This document shows, in pieces, positions 776 through 33,409 of a DNA stretch of 51,129 bases. A model generated the notes under the pieces. The model was not told the origin of the DNA. It did no database searches and saw only the letters and a list, made by a program, of their open reading frames with translations. The translations under genes and the position numbers were made by a program. How positions within the stretch are numbered: position 1 is the stretch's first letter; every line of letters starts with the position of its first letter. Source of the DNA: a virus; the IMG/VR virus record IMGVR_UViG_3300033412_000644, one strand, 5' to 3'.

Positions 776-2128
776 ATGAGCACCGACCGTTGGGCCGGCG
801 TAGTCCGGCCATACCCTTGGGCTGATGTGAAGCGTCTGCAGGGACGCACCAAAGTCAAACACACACTGGCCGAGGAGGGTGCAACTCGCCTCTGGTCGTT
901 GATGTGTGGGAGACCTTTCGTCCGCGCGCTGGGAGCGTCAACGGGCAACATGGCCGTCCAACAGGTCAAGGCCGGGTTGGAGGCGATCTACTGCAGCGGC
1001 TGGCAAGTCGCGGCAGACGCCAACAACGCCGGGCACACCTATCCGGACCAGAGCCTGTACCCCGCCGACAGCGTGCCGACGCTGGTCCGACGCATCAACA
1101 ACGCGATGCTCAGAGCTGAGCAGATCGATACGTTGGATGACGACGGAGATCTCAAGAAGCCGTACAAGCACTGGATGGCTCCCATCGTCGCCGACGCTGA
1201 AGCAGGCTTCGGCGGTCCACTCAACGCCTACGAACTGGTGAAAGCGCTAGTCGAAGCGGGAGCGGCAGGCATCCACCTCGAGGACCAGCTCGCCAGCGCT
1301 AAGAAGTGCGGCCACCTGGGTGGCAAGGTGCTAGTGCCAACGAAGCAATTCATCCAGACGTTGATCGCGGCCCGCTTGGCCTGTGACGTGTTGGAAGTAC
1401 CGACGGTCATCATCGCCAGGACTGATGCGCTGAGCGCGCAACTGATCACTTCTGATGTCGACACTCAAAACGACTGGAAGTACTGCGAACACAACAAGGG
1501 CCGTACCTCCGAGGGCTTCTACTACTTGGGCGGCGACCCGATGGAGCGCACCATCGCTCGTGGACTCGCCTACGCGCCCTATGCTGACGTCCTCTGGTTC
1601 GAGACGTCGGAGCCCGACATGCACCAGGCGTGGCGTTTCGCTGACGCCATTCGCGGCAAGTTCCCGGGCAAGATGTTGGCCTACAACTGCAGCCCGTCGT
1701 TCAACTGGAAGAAGAAGCTGTCCGACGTCGACATCGCCCGTTTCCAGGACGAGCTGGGCAAGATGGGCTACAAGTTCCAGTTCGTCACGTTGGCTGGGTT
1801 CCATGCACTGTCGCACGGTATGTTCAAGTTGGCCCACAGCTACAAGGACGCGGGCATGACGGCGTACGCTGAGCTTCAGGAGCAGGAGTTCGCCAGCGAG
1901 AAAGACGGCTACACCGCGACTCGCCACCAGCGTGAGGTGGGCACCGGTTACTTCGATACGATTGCGCAGATCGTCAGTGGAGGCACTGCGTCAACGTTGG
2001 CCTTGGAAGGCTCGACGGAGACTGCGCAGTTCACTGAACACGGCGCGGTAGACGAGGTAGGATCGAAGGGTGAACCCTCCGGAGATCAAGAAACGCAAGA
2101 CGTTCAGCCTTCGCCTGAACAAGTTTGA
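776..2128 (+). CDS. aceA: isocitrate lyase (bacterial short type) with ~30-aa C-terminal extension
   Basis: Catalytic signature KKCGHLGGK. Long colinear identity to E. coli AceA ([42 protein letters not shown]). Confidence 0.93.
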
Positions 2129-3213: not shown

Positions 3214-3741
3214 ATGAAGAAGACGTCACAGCAGTGGTGGGCGGAGGTCAAGGCCGATCCTGACAAGCTCAACGGTTGGTTGATCAGGCAGTACCGAGGA
3301 GAAGCGACGGCGAGTCGACGCATCAAGGAATTCGCCGACCGCTACGCTCCGGACACGGTGACCAAGCGAATCCTCGGCATGATCGCCGACCAAGAGAAGC
3401 AACACGCAGAGTGGGTGTTGGAGCTGTTGAAGGCACGAGGCATCGAGCCCAACCTCAACGACGCCGAGAAGCGCTACTGGAAAGAGACGTTGCCCGACAT
3501 CAAGACGTTCGCGACCGGAGCCGCAGTGGGTGCTCACGCCGAGCGGATGCGCCTCGAGCGAATCGAGACCATTGCCAACGACCGCGGCGCGCCCCAAGAC
3601 ATCCGGAAGACCTTCCAGCTGATCCTGAAGGACGAGCTGTTCCACGCCGCTGCGTTTGAGCAGATGGCGGGACCCGAAGCGTTGGAGCAGACGCTCCCGT
3701 CGCACCGTCGAGGTCGCGAAGCGCTCGGCCTCGAGCCGTGA
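3214..3741 (+). CDS. ferritin-like helical protein (two ExxH motifs)
   Basis: EKQH and ELFH motifs about 100 aa apart in a predicted all-helical 175-aa protein. A diiron-carboxylate-like fold is inferred only. Confidence 0.4.
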   Translation: MKKTSQQWWAEVKADPDKLNGWLIRQYRGEATASRRIKEFADRYAPDTVTKRILGMIADQEKQHAEWVLELLKARGIEPNLNDAEKRYWKETLPDIKTFATGAAVGAHAERMRLERIETIANDRGAPQDIRKTFQLILKDELFHAAAFEQMAGPEALEQTLPSHRRGREALGLEP

Positions 3742-4735: not shown

Positions 4736-5107
4736 ATGGCAGAGAGCAAGCTGTTCTACGTCTGGGTGACGATGATCAGCGAACCCAACGCGGAGCGCTT
4801 GGTCGGCAAGCTCGTTCGCAGGAACTGGAAGGTGCAGGCCTTGGGCAATCACCTGGTGCTGCACAGCCAGGAGAGCCCGTGTGCCTTGGTCGCCATCTCA
4901 CTGTCGCGGACTGAGCCGTTGAAGAAAGGCGAGGAGGTCGGTTACACTGCCGTCCTCGAAGAAGTCAAGGACGTGCTGAAGCGCCTCGACGTCAAGTACA
5001 TGAACCTCATCGTCACTGAGTCGACGGGCTGCACTTGGTGTTTGGGCAACATCAACCTCACGCAAGAAAAGAAGCAACTCGAAGAAGAGAAGAAGGGCCT
5101 CAACTGA
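4736..5107 (+). CDS. hypothetical protein
   Basis: Start lies 1 nt after the upstream stop. 123 aa; lysine/glutamate-rich C terminus. Confidence 0.4.
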   Translation: MAESKLFYVWVTMISEPNAERLVGKLVRRNWKVQALGNHLVLHSQESPCALVAISLSRTEPLKKGEEVGYTAVLEEVKDVLKRLDVKYMNLIVTESTGCTWCLGNINLTQEKKQLEEEKKGLN

Positions 5108-5871
5108 TGTTGCACGATTCATTGGGCGACCGCATGAAGGCCTACGAGGTCGCAGCGCGGACGGTGCTGCCTCACCGGCTGCCTGTCATCATTCGCGTCG
5201 ACGGCAAGGCATTTCACACCTACACTGCCAAGTGCGAGCGTCCATTCGACCGACGCTTGAGCGACGTCATGGTGTCGACGGCGAAGCGCCTGTGCGAAGA
5301 GATCCAGGGAGCCCAGTTGGCCTACACTCAGTCGGACGAGATTTCGATCCTGGTGCACGGCTACAAGAAGTTCGACACGCAGTCGTGGTTCGACAACCAA
5401 GTTCAGAAGATGACCAGCATCGCTGCGGCGACGGCATCATCACACTTCAGCCTCAACTCCTGGCTCATCTGGGGCGATTGGAAGGATGACACCTTCTACA
5501 AGCCCGCCGATGTCATGAAGGCGCTGCGACCGGCGACCTTCGACGCTCGCGTCTTCATCATCCCCGAGGCCGACGTCTGCAATTACTTCCTGTGGCGACA
5601 GCAGGACGCGACCCGCAACTCAGTCCAGATGCTAGCTCGCTCGCTGTACTCGCACAAGCAGTGCAACAACAAGAACGGCGTCGAGCTGCAGGAGATGTGC
5701 TTTCAAAAGGGTCACAACTGGAACGACCTGGAGCCTCGGTGGAAACGCGGCGTCTGCATCCTCCGGCCGCTGACCAACGACCGGAACCCATGGCACCTCG
5801 ACGACCAGATCCCGATCTTCTCACAGGATCGTAGCTACATCAATGACCTGCTGAAGCTTGAGGAAGAGTGA
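5107..5871 (+). CDS. Thg1-like protein (tRNA-His guanylyltransferase family)
   Basis: MKAYE...RLPVIIRVDGKAFHTYT...RPFD...SDEISIL matches the Thg1 N-terminal catalytic region (RxDGxxFHxF, PxD). TGATG overlap with the upstream gene. Confidence 0.72.
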   Translation: MLHDSLGDRMKAYEVAARTVLPHRLPVIIRVDGKAFHTYTAKCERPFDRRLSDVMVSTAKRLCEEIQGAQLAYTQSDEISILVHGYKKFDTQSWFDNQVQKMTSIAAATASSHFSLNSWLIWGDWKDDTFYKPADVMKALRPATFDARVFIIPEADVCNYFLWRQQDATRNSVQMLARSLYSHKQCNNKNGVELQEMCFQKGHNWNDLEPRWKRGVCILRPLTNDRNPWHLDDQIPIFSQDRSYINDLLKLEEE

Positions 5872-19932: not shown

Positions 19933-20203
19933 CATCGATCGTTTGCTGGCGCCGTGGTTGGTGGGACGCCCACCCAACTACACGATGGACAGCGCCGCCA
20001 AGTACACGGTCGCCGTCGGCTATTGGTTGGCCGAGGAGCTGACGCGCATCGGCTGCAATGAAGCTGACCGCAAGACGCAGTGTTGGAAGTTCAACCGACA
20101 CAGCCGGACCTGGGACATCTTCGACGTTGCCGCTGAGTGCATGAATGAAGCAGTCGAAGGGCGCGTTGAACAGAATCGGAAGCCACACCGGAGGTGGGGA
20201 TGA
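19853..20203 (+). CDS. hypothetical protein
   Basis: 116-aa ORF. Start uncertain (the internal ATG at 19985 avoids an overlap). Confidence 0.3.
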   Translation: MMELKDGQAAGTSTYTAELIKQRVDADIDRLLAPWLVGRPPNYTMDSAAKYTVAVGYWLAEELTRIGCNEADRKTQCWKFNRHSRTWDIFDVAAECMNEAVEGRVEQNRKPHRRWG

Positions 20204-20535
20204 TGCGCTATCGGCACATCCACCGGCGTCCCAAGCGACGGGTTCGACCCGGCCGCAGCAAGATTCACGGTCGGGGTGCCTTCGCTACGCACGTCCTATT
20301 GAAGGGTGAGGTGTTCACCATCAATCACCTAGGACGGCGCAAGTGGGGTGGGTTCAATCACTCCTGTCGACCCAACGTCATCTTGTGCTGGACCCAAGAC
20401 GGTGATCAGTTCTGTGTCGCTCTGCGTCGCATCGAACGGCGCGAGGAGTTGACCGTCAGCTACAGCATCAAGCACGGCCGCCTTCGCAGCGGCGAACGCT
20501 GCAACTGCCCACACCACAAGAGGAAATCAAAATGA
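20200..20535 (+). CDS. minimal SET-domain protein lysine methyltransferase
   Basis: GRGAFATHVLLKGEVF, NHSCRPNV and EELTVSY motifs, with a Cys-rich post-SET tail. GGAGGTGGGG Shine-Dalgarno at 20190-20199. Confidence 0.65.
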   Translation: MMRYRHIHRRPKRRVRPGRSKIHGRGAFATHVLLKGEVFTINHLGRRKWGGFNHSCRPNVILCWTQDGDQFCVALRRIERREELTVSYSIKHGRLRSGERCNCPHHKRKSK

Positions 20536-20807
20536 GCCTGTCACCAAAGACCGATGAGCAACTCGACGCGGAGCTGGCGATGTTTGGCATGCGCAAGCTC
20601 GGTGACGAGTGGGTGCCCGTCCTCAAGCGCCACGCCAAGGGACTCGACGCGTGTCCCGGCTGCAACGGCTTCGGCACCTACGGCATGCCGCTGTGCGGTG
20701 CGGTCTACGCCTGTGACAAGTGCGAAGGTGACGGCAAGCGCCGAGGTGTACCCACCGTCTGGGAGAGGGTACGTTTCTGGTGGAAGGGTCTATTCAAACG
20801 AGGTTGA
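20532..20807 (+). CDS. zinc-ribbon protein
   Basis: CPGCNG...C...CDKCEGDG cysteine pairs. AGAGGAAA Shine-Dalgarno upstream. Confidence 0.4.
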   Translation: MSLSPKTDEQLDAELAMFGMRKLGDEWVPVLKRHAKGLDACPGCNGFGTYGMPLCGAVYACDKCEGDGKRRGVPTVWERVRFWWKGLFKRG

Positions 20808-20808
20808 C

Positions 20809-20985
20809 ATGACACGCAAAGGAATTCGGATGGTCATCGACGACCTGTCGATGCAAGTGTTTCACATCCAGGACAAGCGCGAGCGCTTGAACGAGGAGGA
20901 GGCACGGCTCCGGGCGCGCATCAAAGAGCTCGAGGTCGACCTGCAGGAACCTATCGTCGGACTGCCGATCGTCCAAGTAGGTTGA
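20809..20985 (+). CDS. small coiled-coil protein
   Basis: 58-aa ORF between the flanking genes. Confidence 0.3.
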   Translation: MTRKGIRMVIDDLSMQVFHIQDKRERLNEEEARLRARIKELEVDLQEPIVGLPIVQVG

Positions 20986-21007
20986 TGTGAGGTACCGCAA
21001 CGACAAC

Positions 21008-21913
21008 ATGCTGCTGCGCATTGCTCAGGCTGATGCCTACGGCATGGCGCGTGAATACGTCAAGACCAAAGACGCACCTGATCACGTTGCCGAGTGCCTC
21101 AAGCTGGAGCGCTACCTGCGCCACCCTACATACCATAAGTTGCCGGCCGGCACCTACACTGACGACACCCAGATGTCGATCGCAGTGAGCGAGGTCCTGA
21201 TCAACAAGCACGGCGACGCCACCCACGAAGAGTGGGCCGAGGCGTTCTTCCAGGCGTTCAAGCGCGACCAACGAGACGGCTACTCCCGCCACTTCCAGGC
21301 GATCCTCGAGGAGGCCAGGGACAGCACCCACATGCGGTCGTTGCTGACGCCGACGTCGACTGCCAACGGCGCTTGCATGCGTGCAGTCCCGTTGGGCGTG
21401 TTGCCCAGCAAGAAGACGCTGCTTGAGGTCGCCGCCAAACAGGCGATGGTGACCCACGCGACCTACGGTGGCATCAATTCAGCCAGCGCCGTCGCCCTGA
21501 TGTCACACTTTGCCCTCTACGACCGTCGAGACTTTGCTTGCCTCTACGACTGGTGTTGCCATTGGCTGCCGGCGTTTGAGCTTTTCCGTGAGCCTTGGGT
21601 GGGCCCGGTGCAGGAGAATTCAAAGGACAAGAGGGGTCTCGGAGTCGGTATGAACACCGCGTGGGCGGTGAGCACCCTGCTCCGCGAAGAGAAGTCTTTG
21701 ATGGCGATCCTACGGCGCACCATCGAGTGGGGAGGCGACACCGATTCTGTCGCCGCGGTCGCCTGGGGAATTGCCTCGGCGCGGTACCAGGACGAGCAGC
21801 TGCCTGAGTTCTTCGAAAGAGATCTCGAAAAAGATAGTGGCAGCGCGTATGGGCCTACGTACCTGAAAGCGCTAGGCAAACAGCTGATGGACGCCTACAA
21901 CCCGCGCAGATAA
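21008..21913 (+). CDS. ADP-ribosylglycohydrolase (ARH/DraG family)
   Basis: C-terminal GGDTDSVAAVAWGIA matches the ARH GGDTDT motif. N-terminal LRIAQADAYGM. Start is 20987 (GTG) or 21008 (ATG). Confidence 0.65.
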   Translation: MLLRIAQADAYGMAREYVKTKDAPDHVAECLKLERYLRHPTYHKLPAGTYTDDTQMSIAVSEVLINKHGDATHEEWAEAFFQAFKRDQRDGYSRHFQAILEEARDSTHMRSLLTPTSTANGACMRAVPLGVLPSKKTLLEVAAKQAMVTHATYGGINSASAVALMSHFALYDRRDFACLYDWCCHWLPAFELFREPWVGPVQENSKDKRGLGVGMNTAWAVSTLLREEKSLMAILRRTIEWGGDTDSVAAVAWGIASARYQDEQLPEFFERDLEKDSGSAYGPTYLKALGKQLMDAYNPRR

Positions 21914-21943
21914 AACACCTCCCGCAGGTCGTATGGTGGCAGC

Positions 21944-22984
21944 ATGAGCCACTTCACACTGACGGTCCGACTATCCGCTGAGCGTCTACGTCAACACGAT
22001 GACGACATCGAGTCGGCACTGGAGGAAATCCTCGCGCCCTACAACGAGCAGACCGAGGACCGGAAGTTCCAGGAGTTCCAGGACAACGAGGACGAGTACC
22101 TCGACGAGTACGAGAACAAGTCCACCAAGAAGATCAAAGGACCGCGTGGTCACCTCTACTGGCCTTGGGACGACAAGTTCCGCGTCAAAGGATCGTTCGG
22201 CACCGGCTCCGGCACCCACGATTACAAGCAGCTCGCCGGCTACACTGAGGTCGAGGTCCCATTCAAGAAGCTGTACGCCACCTTCGATGAGTTCTGCTCG
22301 CAGTACCACAGCAGCGAGCGCGATGCAGAGAAGGGTCGGCACGGTTACTGGCGCAATCCCAATGCAAAGTGGGACTGGTGGGTCATCGGTGGACGATGGT
22401 CGGGTCACTATCCTCTGAAGTCGACAGCACCGCGGCGCCTGGGCGAGTCCGGTGCCTTCAACAATGCGCCGACCCCCGATCACGGTGACATCGTCCGCAT
22501 CAGCGACCTCGACACCGACATCATCGCTACACAGACTCGAGAGAATGCCGAGAAGTTCTATGAGGAGTACGTCAAGCTGCTCGCTGGCGAGAAGTTCGAT
22601 GCCTTCGACGGACCTCGGAGTCGAGCGATGTCGCTGGGCCTGTTGCGAGTCGAACAGAAACCGGTCGAAGCGGGTCCTGGCGAAGTGGCGATGTCATGGC
22701 GTGACTCGGTGCGAGCTGACGACAAGCGTGCTGACTGGACCGACGTCGCCAAAGTCATCGACCGGGAGACCTTCCTGAGGGACTACACCGACTGCTTCAA
22801 TCCGATCCTGACTTACGCCGCTCTGGACGAAGAGGGTTGGCACGCTCCCGGGGAGATGGGCTGGTTCGGTTGCTCCAGCGACACACCGGAGGCGTACCTT
22901 CAGTTCAAGAATGAGTTCGTCCGACGCTTCATCAAGACTGCAGCGGCCGACGATGTGTTGGTCTGTGTGGACTGTCACATCTGA
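21944..22984 (+). CDS. hypothetical protein
   Basis: 346 aa, acidic N-terminal region, no recognised domain. Confidence 0.45.
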   Translation: MSHFTLTVRLSAERLRQHDDDIESALEEILAPYNEQTEDRKFQEFQDNEDEYLDEYENKSTKKIKGPRGHLYWPWDDKFRVKGSFGTGSGTHDYKQLAGYTEVEVPFKKLYATFDEFCSQYHSSERDAEKGRHGYWRNPNAKWDWWVIGGRWSGHYPLKSTAPRRLGESGAFNNAPTPDHGDIVRISDLDTDIIATQTRENAEKFYEEYVKLLAGEKFDAFDGPRSRAMSLGLLRVEQKPVEAGPGEVAMSWRDSVRADDKRADWTDVAKVIDRETFLRDYTDCFNPILTYAALDEEGWHAPGEMGWFGCSSDTPEAYLQFKNEFVRRFIKTAAADDVLVCVDCHI

Positions 22985-22990
22985 GGCACC

Positions 22991-23356
22991 ATGAGCTACA
23001 ACATCGACAGCGTCGATACGCCAGTGCTCAACGCTTGGATCCTGAAGAAGGACCTAAAGCGACTGTACAAGAAGCTCGAGGGCGACCTGCCCGAGATGAA
23101 CGTACTGGAAGAACACTTGGATGACGAGCCCGACGAGGACGGTCGCATCAAGTTGCGCAGCTTCGAATGGTGCGGCACTTGGTCGGGCAACTCGTGGAAG
23201 ACGCTAATCAAGCAGGTGGCGCCCAAAGTGATGGGCGAAGTCGAAGCCATCTTCACTTGGGAAGGTGGCGACAGCATCGGCGGTCTCCTCATCAAGGACG
23301 GCAAGGTCGCTGAAGTCGATGTCAAACAACAATTGGTCAGACCAGAAGGTTGGTGA
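22991..23356 (+). CDS. hypothetical protein
   Basis: 121 aa. Confidence 0.4.
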   Translation: MSYNIDSVDTPVLNAWILKKDLKRLYKKLEGDLPEMNVLEEHLDDEPDEDGRIKLRSFEWCGTWSGNSWKTLIKQVAPKVMGEVEAIFTWEGGDSIGGLLIKDGKVAEVDVKQQLVRPEGW

Positions 23357-24171
23357 CAGTGTGCACGCTGATCATCTTGAATGAGCACCATGACGATTGG
23401 CCGTTGATCATTGCGGCCAACCGCGACGAATTCTATGATCGGCCGTCAGCAGGTCCCGACCTCTTTGACACGCTGCCGCTTGCCATCATTGCTCCCAAGG
23501 ATTTGGAGCGAGGTGGCACCTGGATGGGTGCGACGCAGACGGGTTGGTTTGTCGGTCTCACCAACCAAGACGACGGCGACCACCGTGAAGGCATGGAGTC
23601 GCGAGGTCAAGTGGTCGCCGACTGCCTACGACTGTCGGGACACAAGGAGATTGCGCGCTACCTCATTGGCCTCAACCCAGAGAAGTACAACCCATTCAAC
23701 CTCGTCTTCGGCCGACCGGGAGCGATGTTCCTGAGCAAGGTGCACCGCGGTACTGAGGTCGACATGGAGATCATCCCGCAAGGCATCACCGTCATTTCGA
23801 ACGACTGTTCGGATGCCAGGGCGTACCAACGCAAGGTCAACCACGCGCTGGTGCTGGCGGGGTCGGTGGAATTCGATGACCCACTCGATGAGGTCGTGCG
23901 AAAGCTTCACTTGGTGTTGAGTGATCACTCACACTCGTATCCGAACCCGTACCAGTCATTGTGTGTTCACGATACCGAACGTGGCTTTGGTACACGATCT
24001 TCGGCAGTTGTCGCGGTGTCAAAAGAGGGCGACGTACGCTACTATCACTCTGAGGGGCCTGCGTGTCAGGTTGACACCATTCCGCTAGTGCGTGAACTGA
24101 TGACGTTGGATCTCAGCGATTTGGAAGAACCCACTGAGCTGACAGACGACGACATCGAGGTGATCGGATGA
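23350..24171 (+). CDS. NRDE-family protein (TANGO2-like, DUF833)
   Basis: LIIAANRDEFYDRPS and GGTWMG...GLTNQ match the TANGO2 N terminus closely. GTG start overlapping the upstream stop. Confidence 0.78.
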   Translation: MVTVCTLIILNEHHDDWPLIIAANRDEFYDRPSAGPDLFDTLPLAIIAPKDLERGGTWMGATQTGWFVGLTNQDDGDHREGMESRGQVVADCLRLSGHKEIARYLIGLNPEKYNPFNLVFGRPGAMFLSKVHRGTEVDMEIIPQGITVISNDCSDARAYQRKVNHALVLAGSVEFDDPLDEVVRKLHLVLSDHSHSYPNPYQSLCVHDTERGFGTRSSAVVAVSKEGDVRYYHSEGPACQVDTIPLVRELMTLDLSDLEEPTELTDDDIEVIG

Positions 24172-24860
24172 AACGAGCAACGACTGCACTTGACGCGCTG
24201 CAACAACACGATGGTCAGAAGGTACGGGCTTACGGCAAGAACTTCAAGTCGTTGGTCGGCGCTGGATCTTGGGAGATCTCGGGCTTTCACTACGGTCACA
24301 GTCGCTGTGCATGTTGCGGACGTCCCATCAGCCGAGTGCTGCACCTGAAGAATCAGGCACACGACGCCATCAGCAAAGCTGACCCGAACTACCTTTTCAC
24401 TGAGGAGGTAGACATCGGCATCGTCTGCGGGCCACGAGTCTTCATTGAATCGTGTGCCGGCTTCTACGATGACCCGAACCGAGAATGGGAGCGACAATGG
24501 CGAGTCTGGAAGGGTTACGTCGACTACGTCATCTTGTGCGTGCAGAACAAGGACCTGTGGGATGCACTGCCCACGGACCTGCGCACGCCCGTCGACCAGT
24601 ACCTCGAAGAAGGCTACAAATCGGCAGACCACAGCGGTCCGTGGTGGATCCTGCGAGACGCCAAGCGTCGCTACCTCAGGACCAAGCGTGCCAAGACGGG
24701 GGAACTTCCGGATCTGCGAGCGCTGTATTACAATGCACGTGGGGTGGTATACGGTGCCAAACGCCTCCAACTGATCCCGTTGCAGTGGGAGCTGACCAAC
24801 GAGCTGAAGCTGAACACCCATGAAGAAGTGGGCGGAACTACGCAAAGCGAAGGAGTCTGA
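24168..24860 (+). CDS. hypothetical protein
   Basis: 230 aa. ATGA overlap with the upstream gene. Confidence 0.45.
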   Translation: MKRATTALDALQQHDGQKVRAYGKNFKSLVGAGSWEISGFHYGHSRCACCGRPISRVLHLKNQAHDAISKADPNYLFTEEVDIGIVCGPRVFIESCAGFYDDPNREWERQWRVWKGYVDYVILCVQNKDLWDALPTDLRTPVDQYLEEGYKSADHSGPWWILRDAKRRYLRTKRAKTGELPDLRALYYNARGVVYGAKRLQLIPLQWELTNELKLNTHEEVGGTTQSEGV

Positions 24861-24861
24861 C

Positions 24862-26319
24862 ATGGCGAGACGGCGGACGCGATTGCCTGTAGGTGAAGGG
24901 CAAGAGCAGGAGATGTCCTTCCTGGATGAGCTGAAGAGCACATTGCAGGTCGGCCGCGTCAAGAAGATGTTCCGCGTCGGCACTGAGGTGTTCGGTGCGT
25001 GCCAACCTTTCATTGAGAAACCTACCTGGTGGAACGCCGGCAAGGCCGCGCTGGGTATCGGCAAGGTGCTGGTCGATGATGTCGAGGTGTGGTCGCACGA
25101 CTACTTCGACGGCGACGAATGGACGTTGCCCTACTCACGCGACTTCAATGGCACCATCCTCGGAGTGTTGTCCAAGTTCCCGTTCCAGACGATGCGGACC
25201 GCGGAGGAGAACAGCTTCGTCCGCATCGTCGACATGGGCGGCATCAAGGCGGGCTACATCTACAACTCTCGCCTCAACACCGTCGACAACATCTACGTTG
25301 AGACGTCTAAGCTCAACGAAGCAAGGGAGATCATCAAGAAGTTGTTGTGGGAGCAGTTCCAGGGACAGCCTCTGGTGATGCGGCACAACCGGCGCATGGT
25401 CATCAGCAGTGATGAACCTCGCATCGTCTTTGAGGTGGACGACGCCTTTCATCCCATGCCCAGTGAGAAGGCGACTGAGTACAGCGCCTACCTGAAGCGC
25501 TGCCTCGATGCTGACGTACCCAGGAGCGTCATGCTGTATGGGCCGCCGGGCACCGGCAAGTCGACGATGGCCCGCACTCTGGTCGAGACGTTGGGCCTGC
25601 GCTCCTTCCGCATCCGCGTTGAGGACGTCAGCGGTCTGGAGAACAGCACGCTGTTTGAGGCCATCACCATCTTCGAGCCTGACGCTGTCATCTTGGATGA
25701 CTTCGATCGAGCCCACGCTCAAGCAGCGTTGTTGGAGACGTTGGAGTTCTTCCAACGCCACGTCAAGCTGGTGGTGTCGACCGTCAATGACAAGAGCCAA
25801 CTCGATGAAGCTCTGCTGCGGCCTGGCCGCTTTGACGAGCTCGTCCTCATCGACAAGATGGATGAAGGTGTCGTTCGCCTCATCCTCGGCGAGTACGCTG
25901 ATGGGTTCGAGACAGTCAAGGATTGGCCCATCGCCTTCATCCAGGAGTACGTCAAGCGCCGTCGGTTCATGTCAGCCGACGAAGCCGCCAAGTCGACTGA
26001 GGAGCTGGCACGTCGGGTCCGCCGCCTCGACAAGTACCGGGGCGACCAGGAGGAGGATGAGACGGGCCGGATGCTGCGGATCATGAAGAAGCGCGGCACG
26101 GGAGGCCTTCTCGTCGAAGACCTCGAGGGTGTTGAAGAAGAGGATGAGGACGAGGAGGAAGTTCCACCCAGGCCTCAGGCCAGCGCGAAGCCCGGCGCTT
26201 CGACGAGCTTCGAAGACTTCCTGAAGGAGAACAAGATCGTTCCGTGGGAAGAAGTGTCACCACGACTCAAGAAGCGACTGAACAGGATCGTTCAACGATT
26301 CCGAAAGGCAGGCCGTTGA
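24862..26319 (+). CDS. AAA+ ATPase with acidic C-terminal tail
   Basis: Walker A MLYGPPGTGKST, Walker B ILDDFD, sensor/arginine region, then an EDEDEEE tail. Start taken at the ATG just after the upstream stop. Confidence 0.78.
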   Translation: MARRRTRLPVGEGQEQEMSFLDELKSTLQVGRVKKMFRVGTEVFGACQPFIEKPTWWNAGKAALGIGKVLVDDVEVWSHDYFDGDEWTLPYSRDFNGTILGVLSKFPFQTMRTAEENSFVRIVDMGGIKAGYIYNSRLNTVDNIYVETSKLNEAREIIKKLLWEQFQGQPLVMRHNRRMVISSDEPRIVFEVDDAFHPMPSEKATEYSAYLKRCLDADVPRSVMLYGPPGTGKSTMARTLVETLGLRSFRIRVEDVSGLENSTLFEAITIFEPDAVILDDFDRAHAQAALLETLEFFQRHVKLVVSTVNDKSQLDEALLRPGRFDELVLIDKMDEGVVRLILGEYADGFETVKDWPIAFIQEYVKRRRFMSADEAAKSTEELARRVRRLDKYRGDQEEDETGRMLRIMKKRGTGGLLVEDLEGVEEEDEDEEEVPPRPQASAKPGASTSFEDFLKENKIVPWEEVSPRLKKRLNRIVQRFRKAGR

Positions 26320-26416: not shown

Positions 26417-26478
26417 AGCCCCGAAGGGGGCTGCTCAGGGGGTTTCCACGCCGGCACGTCCGGCGTGTCGTCATTTCT
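26417..26478 (+). terminator. two stem-loops downstream of the AAA ATPase gene (candidate intrinsic terminator)
   Basis: AGCCCC-GAAG-GGGGCT at 26417-26432. CACGCCGG-CACGT-CCGGCGTG at 26447-26467 followed by the U-rich run TCGTCATTTCT. Confidence 0.35.
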
Positions 26479-26531: not shown

Positions 26532-26831
26532 ATGGCTAGCTATTCTAAAGCATCGATGGCAACCCGCAACCCAGCTGATGTCAAAGGTCCCCTGAGCGAG
26601 TGCACCGAATTCGTGATGCACAAGTCGCAGCAGCAGATCTTCGCAGGCATCCAGCGTAAGATCGTCGACTACACGGAGCACCGGCTGCTGCGCTACATGT
26701 CCAATGTCAAGGACCCGCAGCAGAAGCAGGTGTTGATGGCGATGATCAAGGACTACCGTGACGGCAACATCGCCGTCGCCTGGCGTCGGGGTCAACCAGT
26801 CTACGTCAGGGTGATGAAAGAAGGAGTCTAG
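26532..26831 (+). CDS. hypothetical protein
   Basis: 99 aa. AGGAA upstream of the start. Confidence 0.4.
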   Translation: MASYSKASMATRNPADVKGPLSECTEFVMHKSQQQIFAGIQRKIVDYTEHRLLRYMSNVKDPQQKQVLMAMIKDYRDGNIAVAWRRGQPVYVRVMKEGV

Positions 26832-27158: not shown

Positions 27159-28784
27159 ATGAACGGTTTCCAAGACCCCAACGAACCTGCATCGACTCAG
27201 GTCATCTTCTCCAGCGAAGCTCGCAAGCAACTGTACGAAGGCCTGAAGGTCGCCGCCGAAGCTGTCGGCTGCACGCTCGGCCCGAAGGGCAAGACAGTCC
27301 TCATCCAACGCCCCGGCGAGTCGCCCCTCGTCACCAAGGACGGCGTCACTGTCAGCAAGGCAATTCGCCTGAAGAATCAGGTGCAACGCATGGGCGCCGA
27401 GTTGATCCGAGAGGCTGCGGCCCGGACCAATGAGGTGGCAGGTGACGGCACCACGACGGCCACCATTCTGACCCACGCGTTGGTCCAGGAGGGCATCAAG
27501 CTGTTGGAGGCCGGTTACTCCTCACAGCTGCTGTGCCGAGGCATCGACAAGGCGGTCCAGCACCTGCTCGACCAGTTGAAGCAGGACGCCAAGCAGCTGA
27601 CGACCGACGAAGAGGTCGCCCAGGTCGGCACCATCAGCGCCAATGGCGACGCAAACATCGGCGACCTCATCGCTCAGGCGATGAAGAAAGTAGGCCGTGA
27701 CGGCATCATCACCGTCGAAGACGCCAAGGGTATGGCAACGACCCTCGAGGTCGTCGAAGGCATGCAGTTCGACCGAGGCTACCTCAGCCCCTACTTCGTC
27801 ACCAACCCCGAGCGGATGTTGGCGTCGTACGGTGATGCTCTGGTCCTGGTCACCGACAAGAAGCTCAACAGCCTCCGCGACCTGATCCCGGTGTTGGAAC
27901 AGGTGGTGCAAGCACAGCGCCCGCTGCTCATCATTGCCGAGGACGTCGAAGGTGAGGCACTGCAAGGATTGGTGTTGAACCGTGTCAAGTCGAACCTACC
28001 GGTCGTCTGCATCAAGGCGCCGGGCTACGGTTCCCACCGCGATGAACTCCTCCGGGACATCTGCGTCCTGACGGGAGCCACGCTGGTGTCTAGCGCGACC
28101 GGCGCGGACCTGAAGAGCGCCGCTGGGTGCTTGGGCCAGTGCAAGAAGATCGTTGTCGACGCCAAGACGTCGACCTTGGTCGGCACCGGCGCTACCAAAG
28201 AGCAGGTCGAGAAGCACGTCGCTGACCTCCGAGCCCAGTTGGAGGACGTCACCCTCGGCCAGGAAGACATCGTCAAGCTGAAGACCCGCGTCGCCAAATT
28301 GGCGTCAGGCGTCGCCGTCGTCAAGGTCGGCGGTGCGACTGAGGTCGAGATGAACGAACGCAAGTACCGCATCGAGGACGCACTCAACGCGACTCGCGCC
28401 GCGGCCGACGAAGGCATCGTTCCCGGCGGCGGCATGGCTCTATTCAACGCGGTCCAGGGAGTCAAGGGCGAGCTGTGCAAGCCCGGCATGGACCGCGATG
28501 AAGTCGCCGGAGTTGAGGTGGTCGTCGACGCCTGTCTCGCGCCCCTCAAAAAGATCGTCGCCAACGCCGGCCAGAACTCAGGCGTCGTCATCGACAACCT
28601 ACACCGTCAATCCGGTGTCGGCTACAACGCGGCAACCGGCAAGTACGAAGACCTGATCGCAGCGGGCATCATTGACCCGGTCAAGGTGACGCGGTCGGCG
28701 CTGCAGCACGCAGCGTCGGTGGCCACCACCTTCCTGTCGCTCGATGCAGTCGTCTGTGACGAGGAGAAGAAGGACAATGGCTGA
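27159..28784 (+). CDS. groEL: chaperonin GroEL (Hsp60), no GGM tail, no adjacent GroES
   Basis: About 50% colinear identity to E. coli GroEL (AGDGTTTATIL, VEGMQFDRGYLSPYF, PLLIIAEDVEGEAL, AADEGIVPGGG). TAGAAT -10-like hexamer 8 nt upstream. Confidence 0.95.
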   Translation: MNGFQDPNEPASTQVIFSSEARKQLYEGLKVAAEAVGCTLGPKGKTVLIQRPGESPLVTKDGVTVSKAIRLKNQVQRMGAELIREAAARTNEVAGDGTTTATILTHALVQEGIKLLEAGYSSQLLCRGIDKAVQHLLDQLKQDAKQLTTDEEVAQVGTISANGDANIGDLIAQAMKKVGRDGIITVEDAKGMATTLEVVEGMQFDRGYLSPYFVTNPERMLASYGDALVLVTDKKLNSLRDLIPVLEQVVQAQRPLLIIAEDVEGEALQGLVLNRVKSNLPVVCIKAPGYGSHRDELLRDICVLTGATLVSSATGADLKSAAGCLGQCKKIVVDAKTSTLVGTGATKEQVEKHVADLRAQLEDVTLGQEDIVKLKTRVAKLASGVAVVKVGGATEVEMNERKYRIEDALNATRAAADEGIVPGGGMALFNAVQGVKGELCKPGMDRDEVAGVEVVVDACLAPLKKIVANAGQNSGVVIDNLHRQSGVGYNAATGKYEDLIAAGIIDPVKVTRSALQHAASVATTFLSLDAVVCDEEKKDNG

Positions 28785-32976: not shown

Positions 32977-33231
32977 GTGAAGATCACGTTGGGAGAGCTG
33001 CGCCGATTCATTCGAGAGGAAGTCGAGCGTAACAATCGATGGTCAGCAGGTTTCTTTGGTGGTGGCGGACTGGACCGCGCCCAGAGCGACAATAGGCTGC
33101 CACCTCCGGGCTTGGGTTCGGACGACGACGAAGACGACACACAACATGGCAAAGAACAAGAAAAGTCACAACCAGCAGTTCGAGTCGACGATCGAGCGAG
33201 AGGATCGTCTGGAACTTCAGGGCTTCGTTGA
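32977..33231 (+). CDS. small protein carrying the shared N-terminal motif (member 3: VKITLGELRRFIREE; GTG start)
   Basis: Motif shared with 2938, 10099 and 37937. The 3' part overlaps infA in another frame. Confidence 0.4.
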   Translation: MKITLGELRRFIREEVERNNRWSAGFFGGGGLDRAQSDNRLPPPGLGSDDDEDDTQHGKEQEKSQPAVRVDDRARGSSGTSGLR

Positions 33232-33409
33232 TGAGGCGTTGCCCGGCACCCTGTTCAAGGTCAAGTGCGACAACGGTCTGCTCGTCCTGTGCACCTTGGC
33301 GGGCAAGCTGCGCATGAACAGGATTCGCATCCTCCCCGGCGACGCAGTGACGATTGAGGTGTCGCCTTACGACACCAGCAAAGGCAGGATCACGTGGCGC
33401 GGAAGGTGA
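33146..33409 (+). CDS. infA: translation initiation factor IF-1 (bacterial type) with ~17-aa N-terminal extension
   Basis: LQGFVDEALPGTLFKV...GKLRMNRIRILPGDAVTIEVSPYDTSKGRITWR matches E. coli IF-1 MQGTVLETLPNTMFRV...[33 protein letters not shown]. Confidence 0.85.
   Translation: MAKNKKSHNQQFESTIEREDRLELQGFVDEALPGTLFKVKCDNGLLVLCTLAGKLRMNRIRILPGDAVTIEVSPYDTSKGRITWRGR

Follow-up and report, generated by a model that had tools for sequence, protein, structure and literature searches.

The viral DNA record IMGVR_UViG_3300033412_000644, whose full length of 51,129 nucleotides we refer to as the window, raises the question of whether four genes encoded close together at positions 20200-26319 act as one system. 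They encode a minimal SET-domain protein (mini-SET), an ADP-ribosylglycohydrolase-family protein (ARH), a TANGO2/NRDE protein and an AAA ATPase, and the original prediction, made from this sequence by itself, had joined them into a eukaryote-flavoured module and named comparative genomics of the quartet as a check. To do so, we searched about 30 related loci for counterparts of the window proteins by tblastn, and for mini-SETs with a hidden Markov model (HMM). The SET, ARH and TANGO2 genes are present or absent independently of one another while the AAA gene is constant; the quartet is therefore not a unit, and the three enzyme genes are separate, individually dispensable accessory genes. The explanation that we favour, and regard as probable, is a variable slot with three independent accessory enzymes beside a conserved cassette of the AAA gene, a protein of about 95 amino acids (aa; p99 in the window) and GroEL. 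The apparent four-gene module would then be an artefact of gene order in one genome. Our observations concern domain identities, residue conservation, gene-presence patterns and a SET fold model; substrates and biological roles are throughout what we infer.

The segment consists of nine plus-strand open reading frames (ORFs) whose stop and start codons overlap or abut. The SET, ARH, TANGO2 and AAA domains all lie where they had been predicted, each above its Pfam curated cut-off and with diagnostic residues intact, and five more plus-strand ORFs of 91, 51, 346, 121 and 230 aa are interleaved among their genes. The catalytic residues whose loss had been named as a test are kept in both enzymes concerned (SET N53-H54 and Y88; ARH T58-D59-D60-T61 and D251-T252-D253-S254). 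The segment and the features that follow it are laid out as given below.

20200..20535, plus strand: mini-SET protein, 111 aa (PF00856, E 6e-9, 36.7 bits)
20532..20807, plus strand: zinc-finger-repeat protein, 91 aa (two DnaJ-type CxxCxGxG repeats, weak phrog_8897 match)
20830..20985, plus strand: small ORF, 51 aa (called by both public gene callers; weak match in one related locus, L004, only)
20987..21913, plus strand: ARH-family ADP-ribosyl(glyco)hydrolase, 308 aa, GTG start (PF03747, E 2e-30)
21944..22984, plus strand: phrog_10079 protein, 346 aa (phrog_10079, E 1.5e-42)
22991..23356, plus strand: ORF of 121 aa (only in the window)
23359..24171, plus strand: TANGO2/NRDE protein, 270 aa, Met-Cys start (PF05742, E 1.6e-31)
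24168..24860, plus strand: p230, 230 aa (no Pfam, PHROG, NCBIfam or PADLOC match)
24862..26319 (alternative start 24820), plus strand: single-domain classical AAA ATPase (PF00004, E 1.9e-14)
26452..26470, plus strand: terminator-like hairpin, in the 212-nucleotide (nt) gap 3' of the AAA gene
26532..26831, plus strand: p99, between the AAA gene and GroEL, 99 aa (no family match)
27159..28784, plus strand: GroEL-type chaperonin (phrog_5725, E 5e-157)

Related loci were retrieved with a TANGO2 alignment as the query, a single TANGO2 protein having retrieved none; a metagenome scan with the AAA protein added 365 tblastn-confirmed matches, and about 19 of the 80 that were kept are clear orthologues or near-orthologues. 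The 5' part of the conserved backbone encodes Peptidase_C1, NUDIX, UDPGP, a trypsin-like protein (minus strand), Fpg, a vWA protein and a 116-aa ORF. A variable slot follows, and then the AAA gene, the protein of about 95 aa and GroEL. Presence and absence of the three enzyme genes could be read in about 25 loci, many of them on short contigs, and the combinations include the following.

None of SET, ARH and TANGO2: L017, L018, L025
SET only: L020, L023, L024
ARH only: L029
TANGO2 only: L001, L007/L009
ARH and TANGO2: L004, L005, L006, L028
SET, ARH and TANGO2: the window, L002, L008 (TANGO2 decayed in L008)

Decay of TANGO2 is visible as a protein cut to 168 aa in L008 and as a 95-aa remnant in L013. 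The SET/ARH/TANGO2 states are scattered over a neighbour-joining tree of the AAA proteins, which indicates repeated loss or gain, and the AAA gene was found in every related locus, including those that lack all three enzymes.

The AAA gene instead goes with its downstream neighbours. Wherever a contig continues past the AAA gene, the protein of about 95 aa and then GroEL (59-74% identical in relatives) come next, and the arrangement recurs in L031, in which the AAA protein is 31% identical; L030 keeps AAA and GroEL. As the linkage holds even at this level of divergence, the AAA gene, a core gene of the phage family, belongs to a chaperonin cassette. What the AAA protein does is best indicated by this constant association with p99 and GroEL: the three proteins may form a cassette for protein folding or remodelling, and the invariant trio suggests an ATPase partner for some phage chaperonins. 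We found no family match for p99 in the libraries scanned; it looks mostly helical from its sequence and is therefore probably not an analogue of GroES or gp31.

The closest sequences to the AAA protein in the Protein Data Bank (PDB) are Cdc48/p97 D1, AFG2 and FtsH. Nine orthologues share an invariant Walker A (GPPGTGKST), Walker B (ILDDFD), sensor-1 N323 and R334-P-G-R337-F-D, and the Walker A, the sensor-1 Asn and the second region of homology with its arginine fingers align with Cdc48/p97. The protein thus resembles the classical clade (Cdc48/p97 D1, AFG2, FtsH and PAN) in Walker A, sensor-1 Asn, RPGRFD and a helical lid, but differs from it in being a single domain with a DD Walker B, a unique N-domain and a constant link to a phage GroEL. 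This N-domain, of about 190 residues, is strongly conserved in orthologues; a profile built from the AAA alignment matched the ATPase core only when compared with the PDB, with nothing for the N-domain, and single-sequence AlphaFold modelling (predicted local distance difference test (pLDDT) score of 39.8) gave no usable fold for it. The protein also falls far below every NCBIfam cut-off. Translation probably begins at ATG 24862 rather than at 24820, because this codon lies directly 3' of the upstream stop, one public gene call gives a protein of 485 aa and conservation among orthologues begins near there.

That the four genes nevertheless make up one host-manipulation module, in which writers and erasers of marks and an ATPase share a common target or pathway, for example against ADP-ribosylating defence toxins, strikes us as improbable. 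Such a module would be in keeping with genes that lie on the same strand and overlap or abut, with a plus strand on which no internal terminator-like site was found between 20200 and 26319, with an order (SET, ARH, TANGO2, AAA) that is constant wherever the genes occur, and with the recurrence of the full set in L002 and, with its decayed TANGO2, in L008. However, SET, ARH and TANGO2 can each be found alone in related phages, some relatives keep AAA without any of them, and the AAA gene tracks GroEL rather than the enzymes. Mini-SETs in unrelated phages have no ARH, TANGO2 or AAA gene nearby. A comparison with PADLOC gave no ARH similarity and, across the region, generic P-loop matches only.

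Several points weigh against a slot of independent genes beside a chaperonin cassette. The genes from SET to AAA are probably co-transcribed, as they are co-directional with overlapping stop and start codons, and this, together with their constant order, may leave room for a loose rather than obligate functional link, such as shared timing or a shared target pathway. The loci in which presence and absence were scored are few, often short contigs, and phylogenetically non-independent. Within the cassette, the Walker B of the AAA protein has D293-D294 (DD, not DE) aligned with FIDEID of Cdc48 and thus lacks the catalytic Glu, and pore loop 1 is non-aromatic (V-S-G in the window, L-G-G in relatives, aligned with K-L-A-G of p97 D1). 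A role as a protein unfoldase beside GroEL is uncertain because both the canonical Walker B glutamate and the aromatic pore loop are missing; p97 D1 likewise has a non-aromatic pore loop 1. Finally, the terminator-like hairpin separates the AAA gene from p99 and GroEL in the window, in the sole sizeable intergenic gap of the block. A promoter and terminator scan gave no more such sites in the region than expected from shuffled sequence, so the hairpin is weak evidence.

Among the occupants of the slot, the mini-SET is the most novel. The PF00856 profile (cut-off 22.4 bits) aligns with residues 54-90 only, which is the C-terminal half, yet the protein has, in order, a basic N-terminal tail, IHGRGAF, GFNHSCRPN, EELTVSY and a C-terminal CNCPHH that resembles a post-SET; the motif residues are G24/G26 of GxG, N53-H54-S55-C56-x-P58-N59 and E82-E83-L-T85-x-x-Y88. 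The closest sequence of solved structure is that of MLL1/KMT2A (E 2.6e-8), matched in two separate halves: one covers the N-flank and the GxG region, the other NHSCxPN, EELTxxY and the CxC region. Between them, 52 residues of MLL1 are replaced by 14 (query 38-52 versus MLL1 chain 42-94), leaving 38 residues missing. Because of this replacement we consider the SET-I insert, which forms one wall of the lysine channel, to be absent; the protein is not a complete SET core with SET-I.

A word-indexed homology search with the single SET protein returned only the protein itself. An exhaustive HMMER search over 1.84 billion cluster representatives gave 131 matches, 80 of which are 83-130 aa in length and align end to end, each representing a separate 50%-identity cluster. 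Kept in 64-80 of these 80 are S20, IHGxGxFA, G36, GFNHSCxPN, GEELTxxY and the C-terminal CxC; in the sequences displayed, position +5 counted from the first Cys of this motif is again a Cys or else a His. By reference to established SET structures, CxCxxC/H and Cys56 of NHSC look like a one-zinc post-SET. The mini-SET is predicted to adopt the SET beta-fold by a confident AlphaFold (AF2) model made with 29 family members (pLDDT 84.2, predicted TM-score (pTM) 0.74), for which Foldseek returned MLL1, vSET, SUV420H and SET7/9 (probability 1.0, TM 0.5-0.62).

For scanning loci, a 53-sequence mini-SET alignment was too diverse and a 12-sequence version was used, which gave four weak matches in 185,579 species genomes, three of them to the C-terminal half only; mini-SETs therefore look essentially absent from cellular reference genomes. 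In IMG/VR, the same alignment found the contig of L008 only. The settings of other mini-SETs are phage-like: some lie within extended series of short ORFs that share one strand and include T4_Y16D and DUF6197 domains, and another lies in a replication module of VapE, PolA, UDG and a helicase, whereas the contigs of two (P0122 and P0124) were too short to inform on context. The mini-SETs form a previously undescribed and diverse phage family that is spread over several unrelated phage types. Our literature searches on phage SET proteins returned no paper on such proteins.

In length, the 111-aa protein bears out a predicted likeness to chlorovirus vSET (PBCV-1 A612L), another virus-encoded, near-bare SET core of about 110-120 aa with comparable motifs (GxG, NHSxxPN and EEITxSY), which is among the top Foldseek matches (3kma, E 6e-6, probability 1.0). 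Aligned with vSET, the phage protein is about 33% identical and about 27 residues shorter between GxG and NHS, without a SET-I-like segment. It also has the post-SET-like CxCxxC/H and the NHSC cysteine, both lacking in vSET, and its phage infects a prokaryote, which has no histone H3. MLL1 structures were the best Foldseek matches, although the TM-score is only 0.5-0.6, and the likeness extends to the N-flank (MRYRHIHRR...IHGRGAF in the phage, MRFRHLKK...IHGRGLF in MLL1) and to the post-SET CNC. Unlike MLL1, however, the mini-SET is a stand-alone protein of 111 aa that lacks the 38 residues that include SET-I and has no known partners of the WRAD type.

We envisage the mini-SET as an S-adenosylmethionine-dependent protein lysine methyltransferase without SET-I and with very basic tails, which would methylate a protein of the host or the phage that is associated with nucleic acid. 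Its lysine channel might be completed by dimerisation or by a partner protein. The 10 Arg or Lys residues among the first 21 of the window protein suggest a target of this kind. Extended to the family, the proposal becomes more tentative, although we consider it a real possibility: the 83-130-aa mini-SETs would be phage-specific, active lysine methyltransferases and the smallest SET enzymes known, built from a core without SET-I and a one-zinc post-SET. With these, several unrelated lineages would methylate a host protein (nucleoid-, ribosome- or defence-associated) or a phage protein, the channel being completed by dimerisation or by the substrate. If active, the mini-SETs would lower the minimum size known for the SET fold, and protein lysine methylation by SET enzymes would be a recurrent phage strategy, about which the literature that we searched holds nothing.

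The missing 38 residues, the restriction of the Pfam match to the C-terminal half and the visible decay of TANGO2 in L008 and L013 could also mean that the mini-SET has degenerated into a remnant without catalysis or serves as a binding module, and that the region is a collection of decaying accessory genes with little function. We think this unlikely. The retention of GxG, NHSCxPN, EELTxxY and CxCxxC/H in 64-80 of 80 representatives from separate 50%-identity clusters points to purifying selection on the active site, and the fold model agrees with an intact fold. The ARH orthologues tell against general decay too, with a mean column identity of 71% and every metal ligand kept.

The ARH protein, like the TANGO2 and AAA proteins, is a new member of a known family, whereas the mini-SET is a new phage-borne variant of the SET fold. 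The ARH protein scores 106.9 bits to PF03747 (cut-off 26.2 bits) over nearly the full length of the profile (positions 8-286 of 287), and its closest PDB sequences are ARH3 and archaeal MJ1187 (both about 1e-10) and DraG (1e-7). T58-D59-D60-T61 aligns with TDDT of ARH3, and D251-T252-D253-S254 (GGDTDS) with GGDTDT. D16, E23, D59-D60-T61 and D251-T252-D253-S254 do not vary among nine orthologues, eight of which have T at residue 58 and one S, and residues upstream of an alternative Met are conserved as well; E23 we take to be the counterpart of ARH3 Glu41. With its ligands invariant or conservatively kept, the di-metal site is predicted to be intact. The protein shares PF03747, TDDT, DTDS and N-terminal acidic residues with the ARH/DraG family (human ARH3, MJ1187, DraG and the type VI secretion immunity protein Tri1). 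It lies far below the equivalog cut-offs for DraG (TIGR02662, 50.2 bits against 337) and Tri1 (NF041672, 32.4 against 490), and is therefore not an orthologue of any characterised member. We expect a metal-dependent hydrolase that would cleave ADP-ribose off a protein or nucleic acid or release it from a small molecule; the sequence does not tell whether the ADP-ribose is linked to Arg, Ser or nucleic acid or whether the substrate is a small molecule. With regard to the role against DarT or other toxins that had been suggested for it, the scan of window ORFs revealed no ADP-ribosyltransferase. Literature searches linking phages with ARH or with TANGO2 returned nothing relevant.

The TANGO2 protein scores 110.8 bits to PF05742 (cut-off 22.6 bits). 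Its ORF had been listed from TTG 23350; starting at GTG 23359 yields Met-Cys-Thr-Leu (MCTLII) and 270 aa. The latter is almost certainly the true start, because it lies 3 nt past the upstream stop, a GAAGG precedes it by about 10 nt, and a length of 270 aa was called independently by two gene callers. In 37 homologues, C2, N21-R22-D23-E24 and N148 are invariant, and the NRDE motif and N148 align with N25-E28 and N157 of the human protein (PDB 8sv7). K159 (consensus YxxK), 10-11 residues past N148, is conserved, but lies outside the stretch that HMMER aligned to 8sv7 (we compared it with human Lys166). The protein thus resembles human TANGO2 and Shewanella HtpA in PF05742, the N-terminal Met-Cys, NRDE and the oxyanion-hole Asn, and differs from the family in being phage-encoded and in having an acidic C-terminal extension. 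This tail (…LTDEDIEVIG; D/E-L-T-D-E/D-D-I-E-x-I-G/E; LTDDDIEVIG in the window) is present in many phage copies, is lacking in the myxobacterial sequences of the alignment and may be a docking peptide.

To our knowledge, no TANGO2-family activity is known beyond acyl-CoA and haem binding. The statement in the original prediction that these proteins have no established molecular function is nonetheless partly out of date. A 2026 crystal structure argues that TANGO2 is a cysteine Ntn-hydrolase and assigns active-site roles to the NRDE motif, the Cys and the Asn (PMC13044924), and acyl-CoA binding by human TANGO2 requires the NRDE motif (PMC11867700). A haem-trafficking role for bacterial homologues has been proposed (PMC10470608) but is disputed (PMC12782551). 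With its exposed N-terminal Cys, the phage protein could be a cysteine Ntn-hydrolase-like enzyme or a binder of acyl-CoA or fatty-acyl groups; it would have a bacterial origin and act on the lipid or CoA metabolism of the host. With their intact Cys-Ntn constellation, phage TANGO2 proteins would allow the biochemistry of a human disease protein, which is disputed, to be worked out in simple bacterial systems.

As predicted, TANGO2 is unusual in phages: PHROGs holds no match, and we found it in 3 of 50,697 phage records and at 10 loci in IMG/VR. Two of the three matching records come from an assembly whose other contigs carry ftsH and groL. The records concerned are CAKLQH020000005.1, CAKLQH020000021.1, CAKLQF02..., OQ572411.1 and OQ572408.1. 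Some with the label Acinetobacter phage MD-2021a carry ftsH-annotated and groL genes and share their assemblies with the records that matched TANGO2, and Pseudomonas phage Y6 matched the AAA query in the manner of those ftsH-annotated genes. Bacterial sequence may be present in these records, which would make TANGO2 rarer still in isolated phages than the three matches suggest. A distant TANGO2 (28% identity) was also observed on an unrelated 124-kb viral contig (IMGVR_UViG_3300009095_000010, L012:8179-10325), with RtcB and an HD domain upstream and DFP/CoaB (PF04127) and Flavoprotein/CoaC (PF02441) directly following it. CoaB and CoaC are coenzyme A synthesis genes, and this adjacency agrees with the connection to acyl-CoA that has been reported for TANGO2.

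Among named cellular proteins, those nearest to the window TANGO2 are NRDE proteins of Myxococcota (38-41% identity), which points to bacterial rather than eukaryotic ancestry. The ARH protein matches MJ1187 and DraG about as well as it does human ARH3, so the description of the region as eukaryote-flavoured was overstated. A eukaryote-derived island was considered and rejected, as base composition is uniform over the segment and the nearest TANGO2 and ARH relatives are prokaryotic.

Between TANGO2 and AAA lies p230, with orthologues (49-56% identity) in L001, L004, L005, L007/L009 and L028, always in this position and, in relatives with visible upstream context, only alongside TANGO2. In L002, L006 and L027, TANGO2 occurs without p230 and abuts AAA directly. 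These arrangements, together with the acidic tail of many phage TANGO2 copies, would be accommodated if TANGO2, p230 and AAA formed a functional sub-unit, an Ntn-hydrolase-like protein served by an ATPase and loosely comparable to HslV/HslU, with SET and ARH as unrelated passengers. We consider this very unlikely, since AAA is kept without TANGO2 in L017, L018, L020, L023-L025 and L029 and lacks an aromatic pore loop, and TANGO2-type Ntn hydrolases have been proposed to act on fatty-acyl amides, not proteins (PMC13044924).

Among the other interleaved ORFs, the 91-aa protein (20532-20807), between SET and ARH, has repeats of the DnaJ cysteine-rich type (CPGCNGFG and CDKCEGDG) and no homologue in any related locus. 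For the 346-aa protein, matches of 25-30% identity were obtained in 40 phage records, among them Myxococcus phage Mx1 and jumbo phages of the CBB/BF type; neither its gene nor that for the 121-aa protein was found in the related loci compared, and both occur in the window only.

The genes considered here belong to an extended block of closely spaced genes on one strand, and the phage is an uncultivated one of about 358 kb, as an identical SET protein is present on a contig of 357,674 bp. Megablast of the region against the 50,697 phage records gave no near match. The window proteins recur on metagenome contigs from JGI and Logan, and TANGO2 and AAA homologues (45-76% identity) occur in IMG/VR and in metagenomes, on contigs that reach 340-370 kb. 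The gene content of the window, which includes GroEL, a Thg1-like tRNA-His guanylyltransferase, Fpg, NUDIX, IF-1/eIF-1A, isocitrate lyase and a major-vault-protein-like protein, fits a huge phage. The last of these (898 aa, 48396-51092, minus strand) has a major-vault-protein shoulder domain (PF11978, E 4e-30, above the cut-off) and matches Vault repeats weakly; within the phage collection, relatives (41-44% identity) are confined to LR756500, LR756501 and LR756503, which are 'huge phage' genomes of 462 kb and 735 kb. A 656-aa SPFH/Band-7 protein (46392-48362, minus strand) adjoins it.

Further genes of the window include those for an isocitrate lyase family protein (776-2128, plus strand, E 5e-93), a rubrerythrin-like protein (3214-3741, plus strand), the Thg1-like tRNA-His guanylyltransferase (5035-5871, plus strand, phrog_4717, E 4e-85) and a protein with the IF-1/eIF-1A fold (33056-33409, plus strand, E 5e-22). 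The window further encodes an EamA transporter and a response-regulator receiver domain, neither of them assigned to an ORF.

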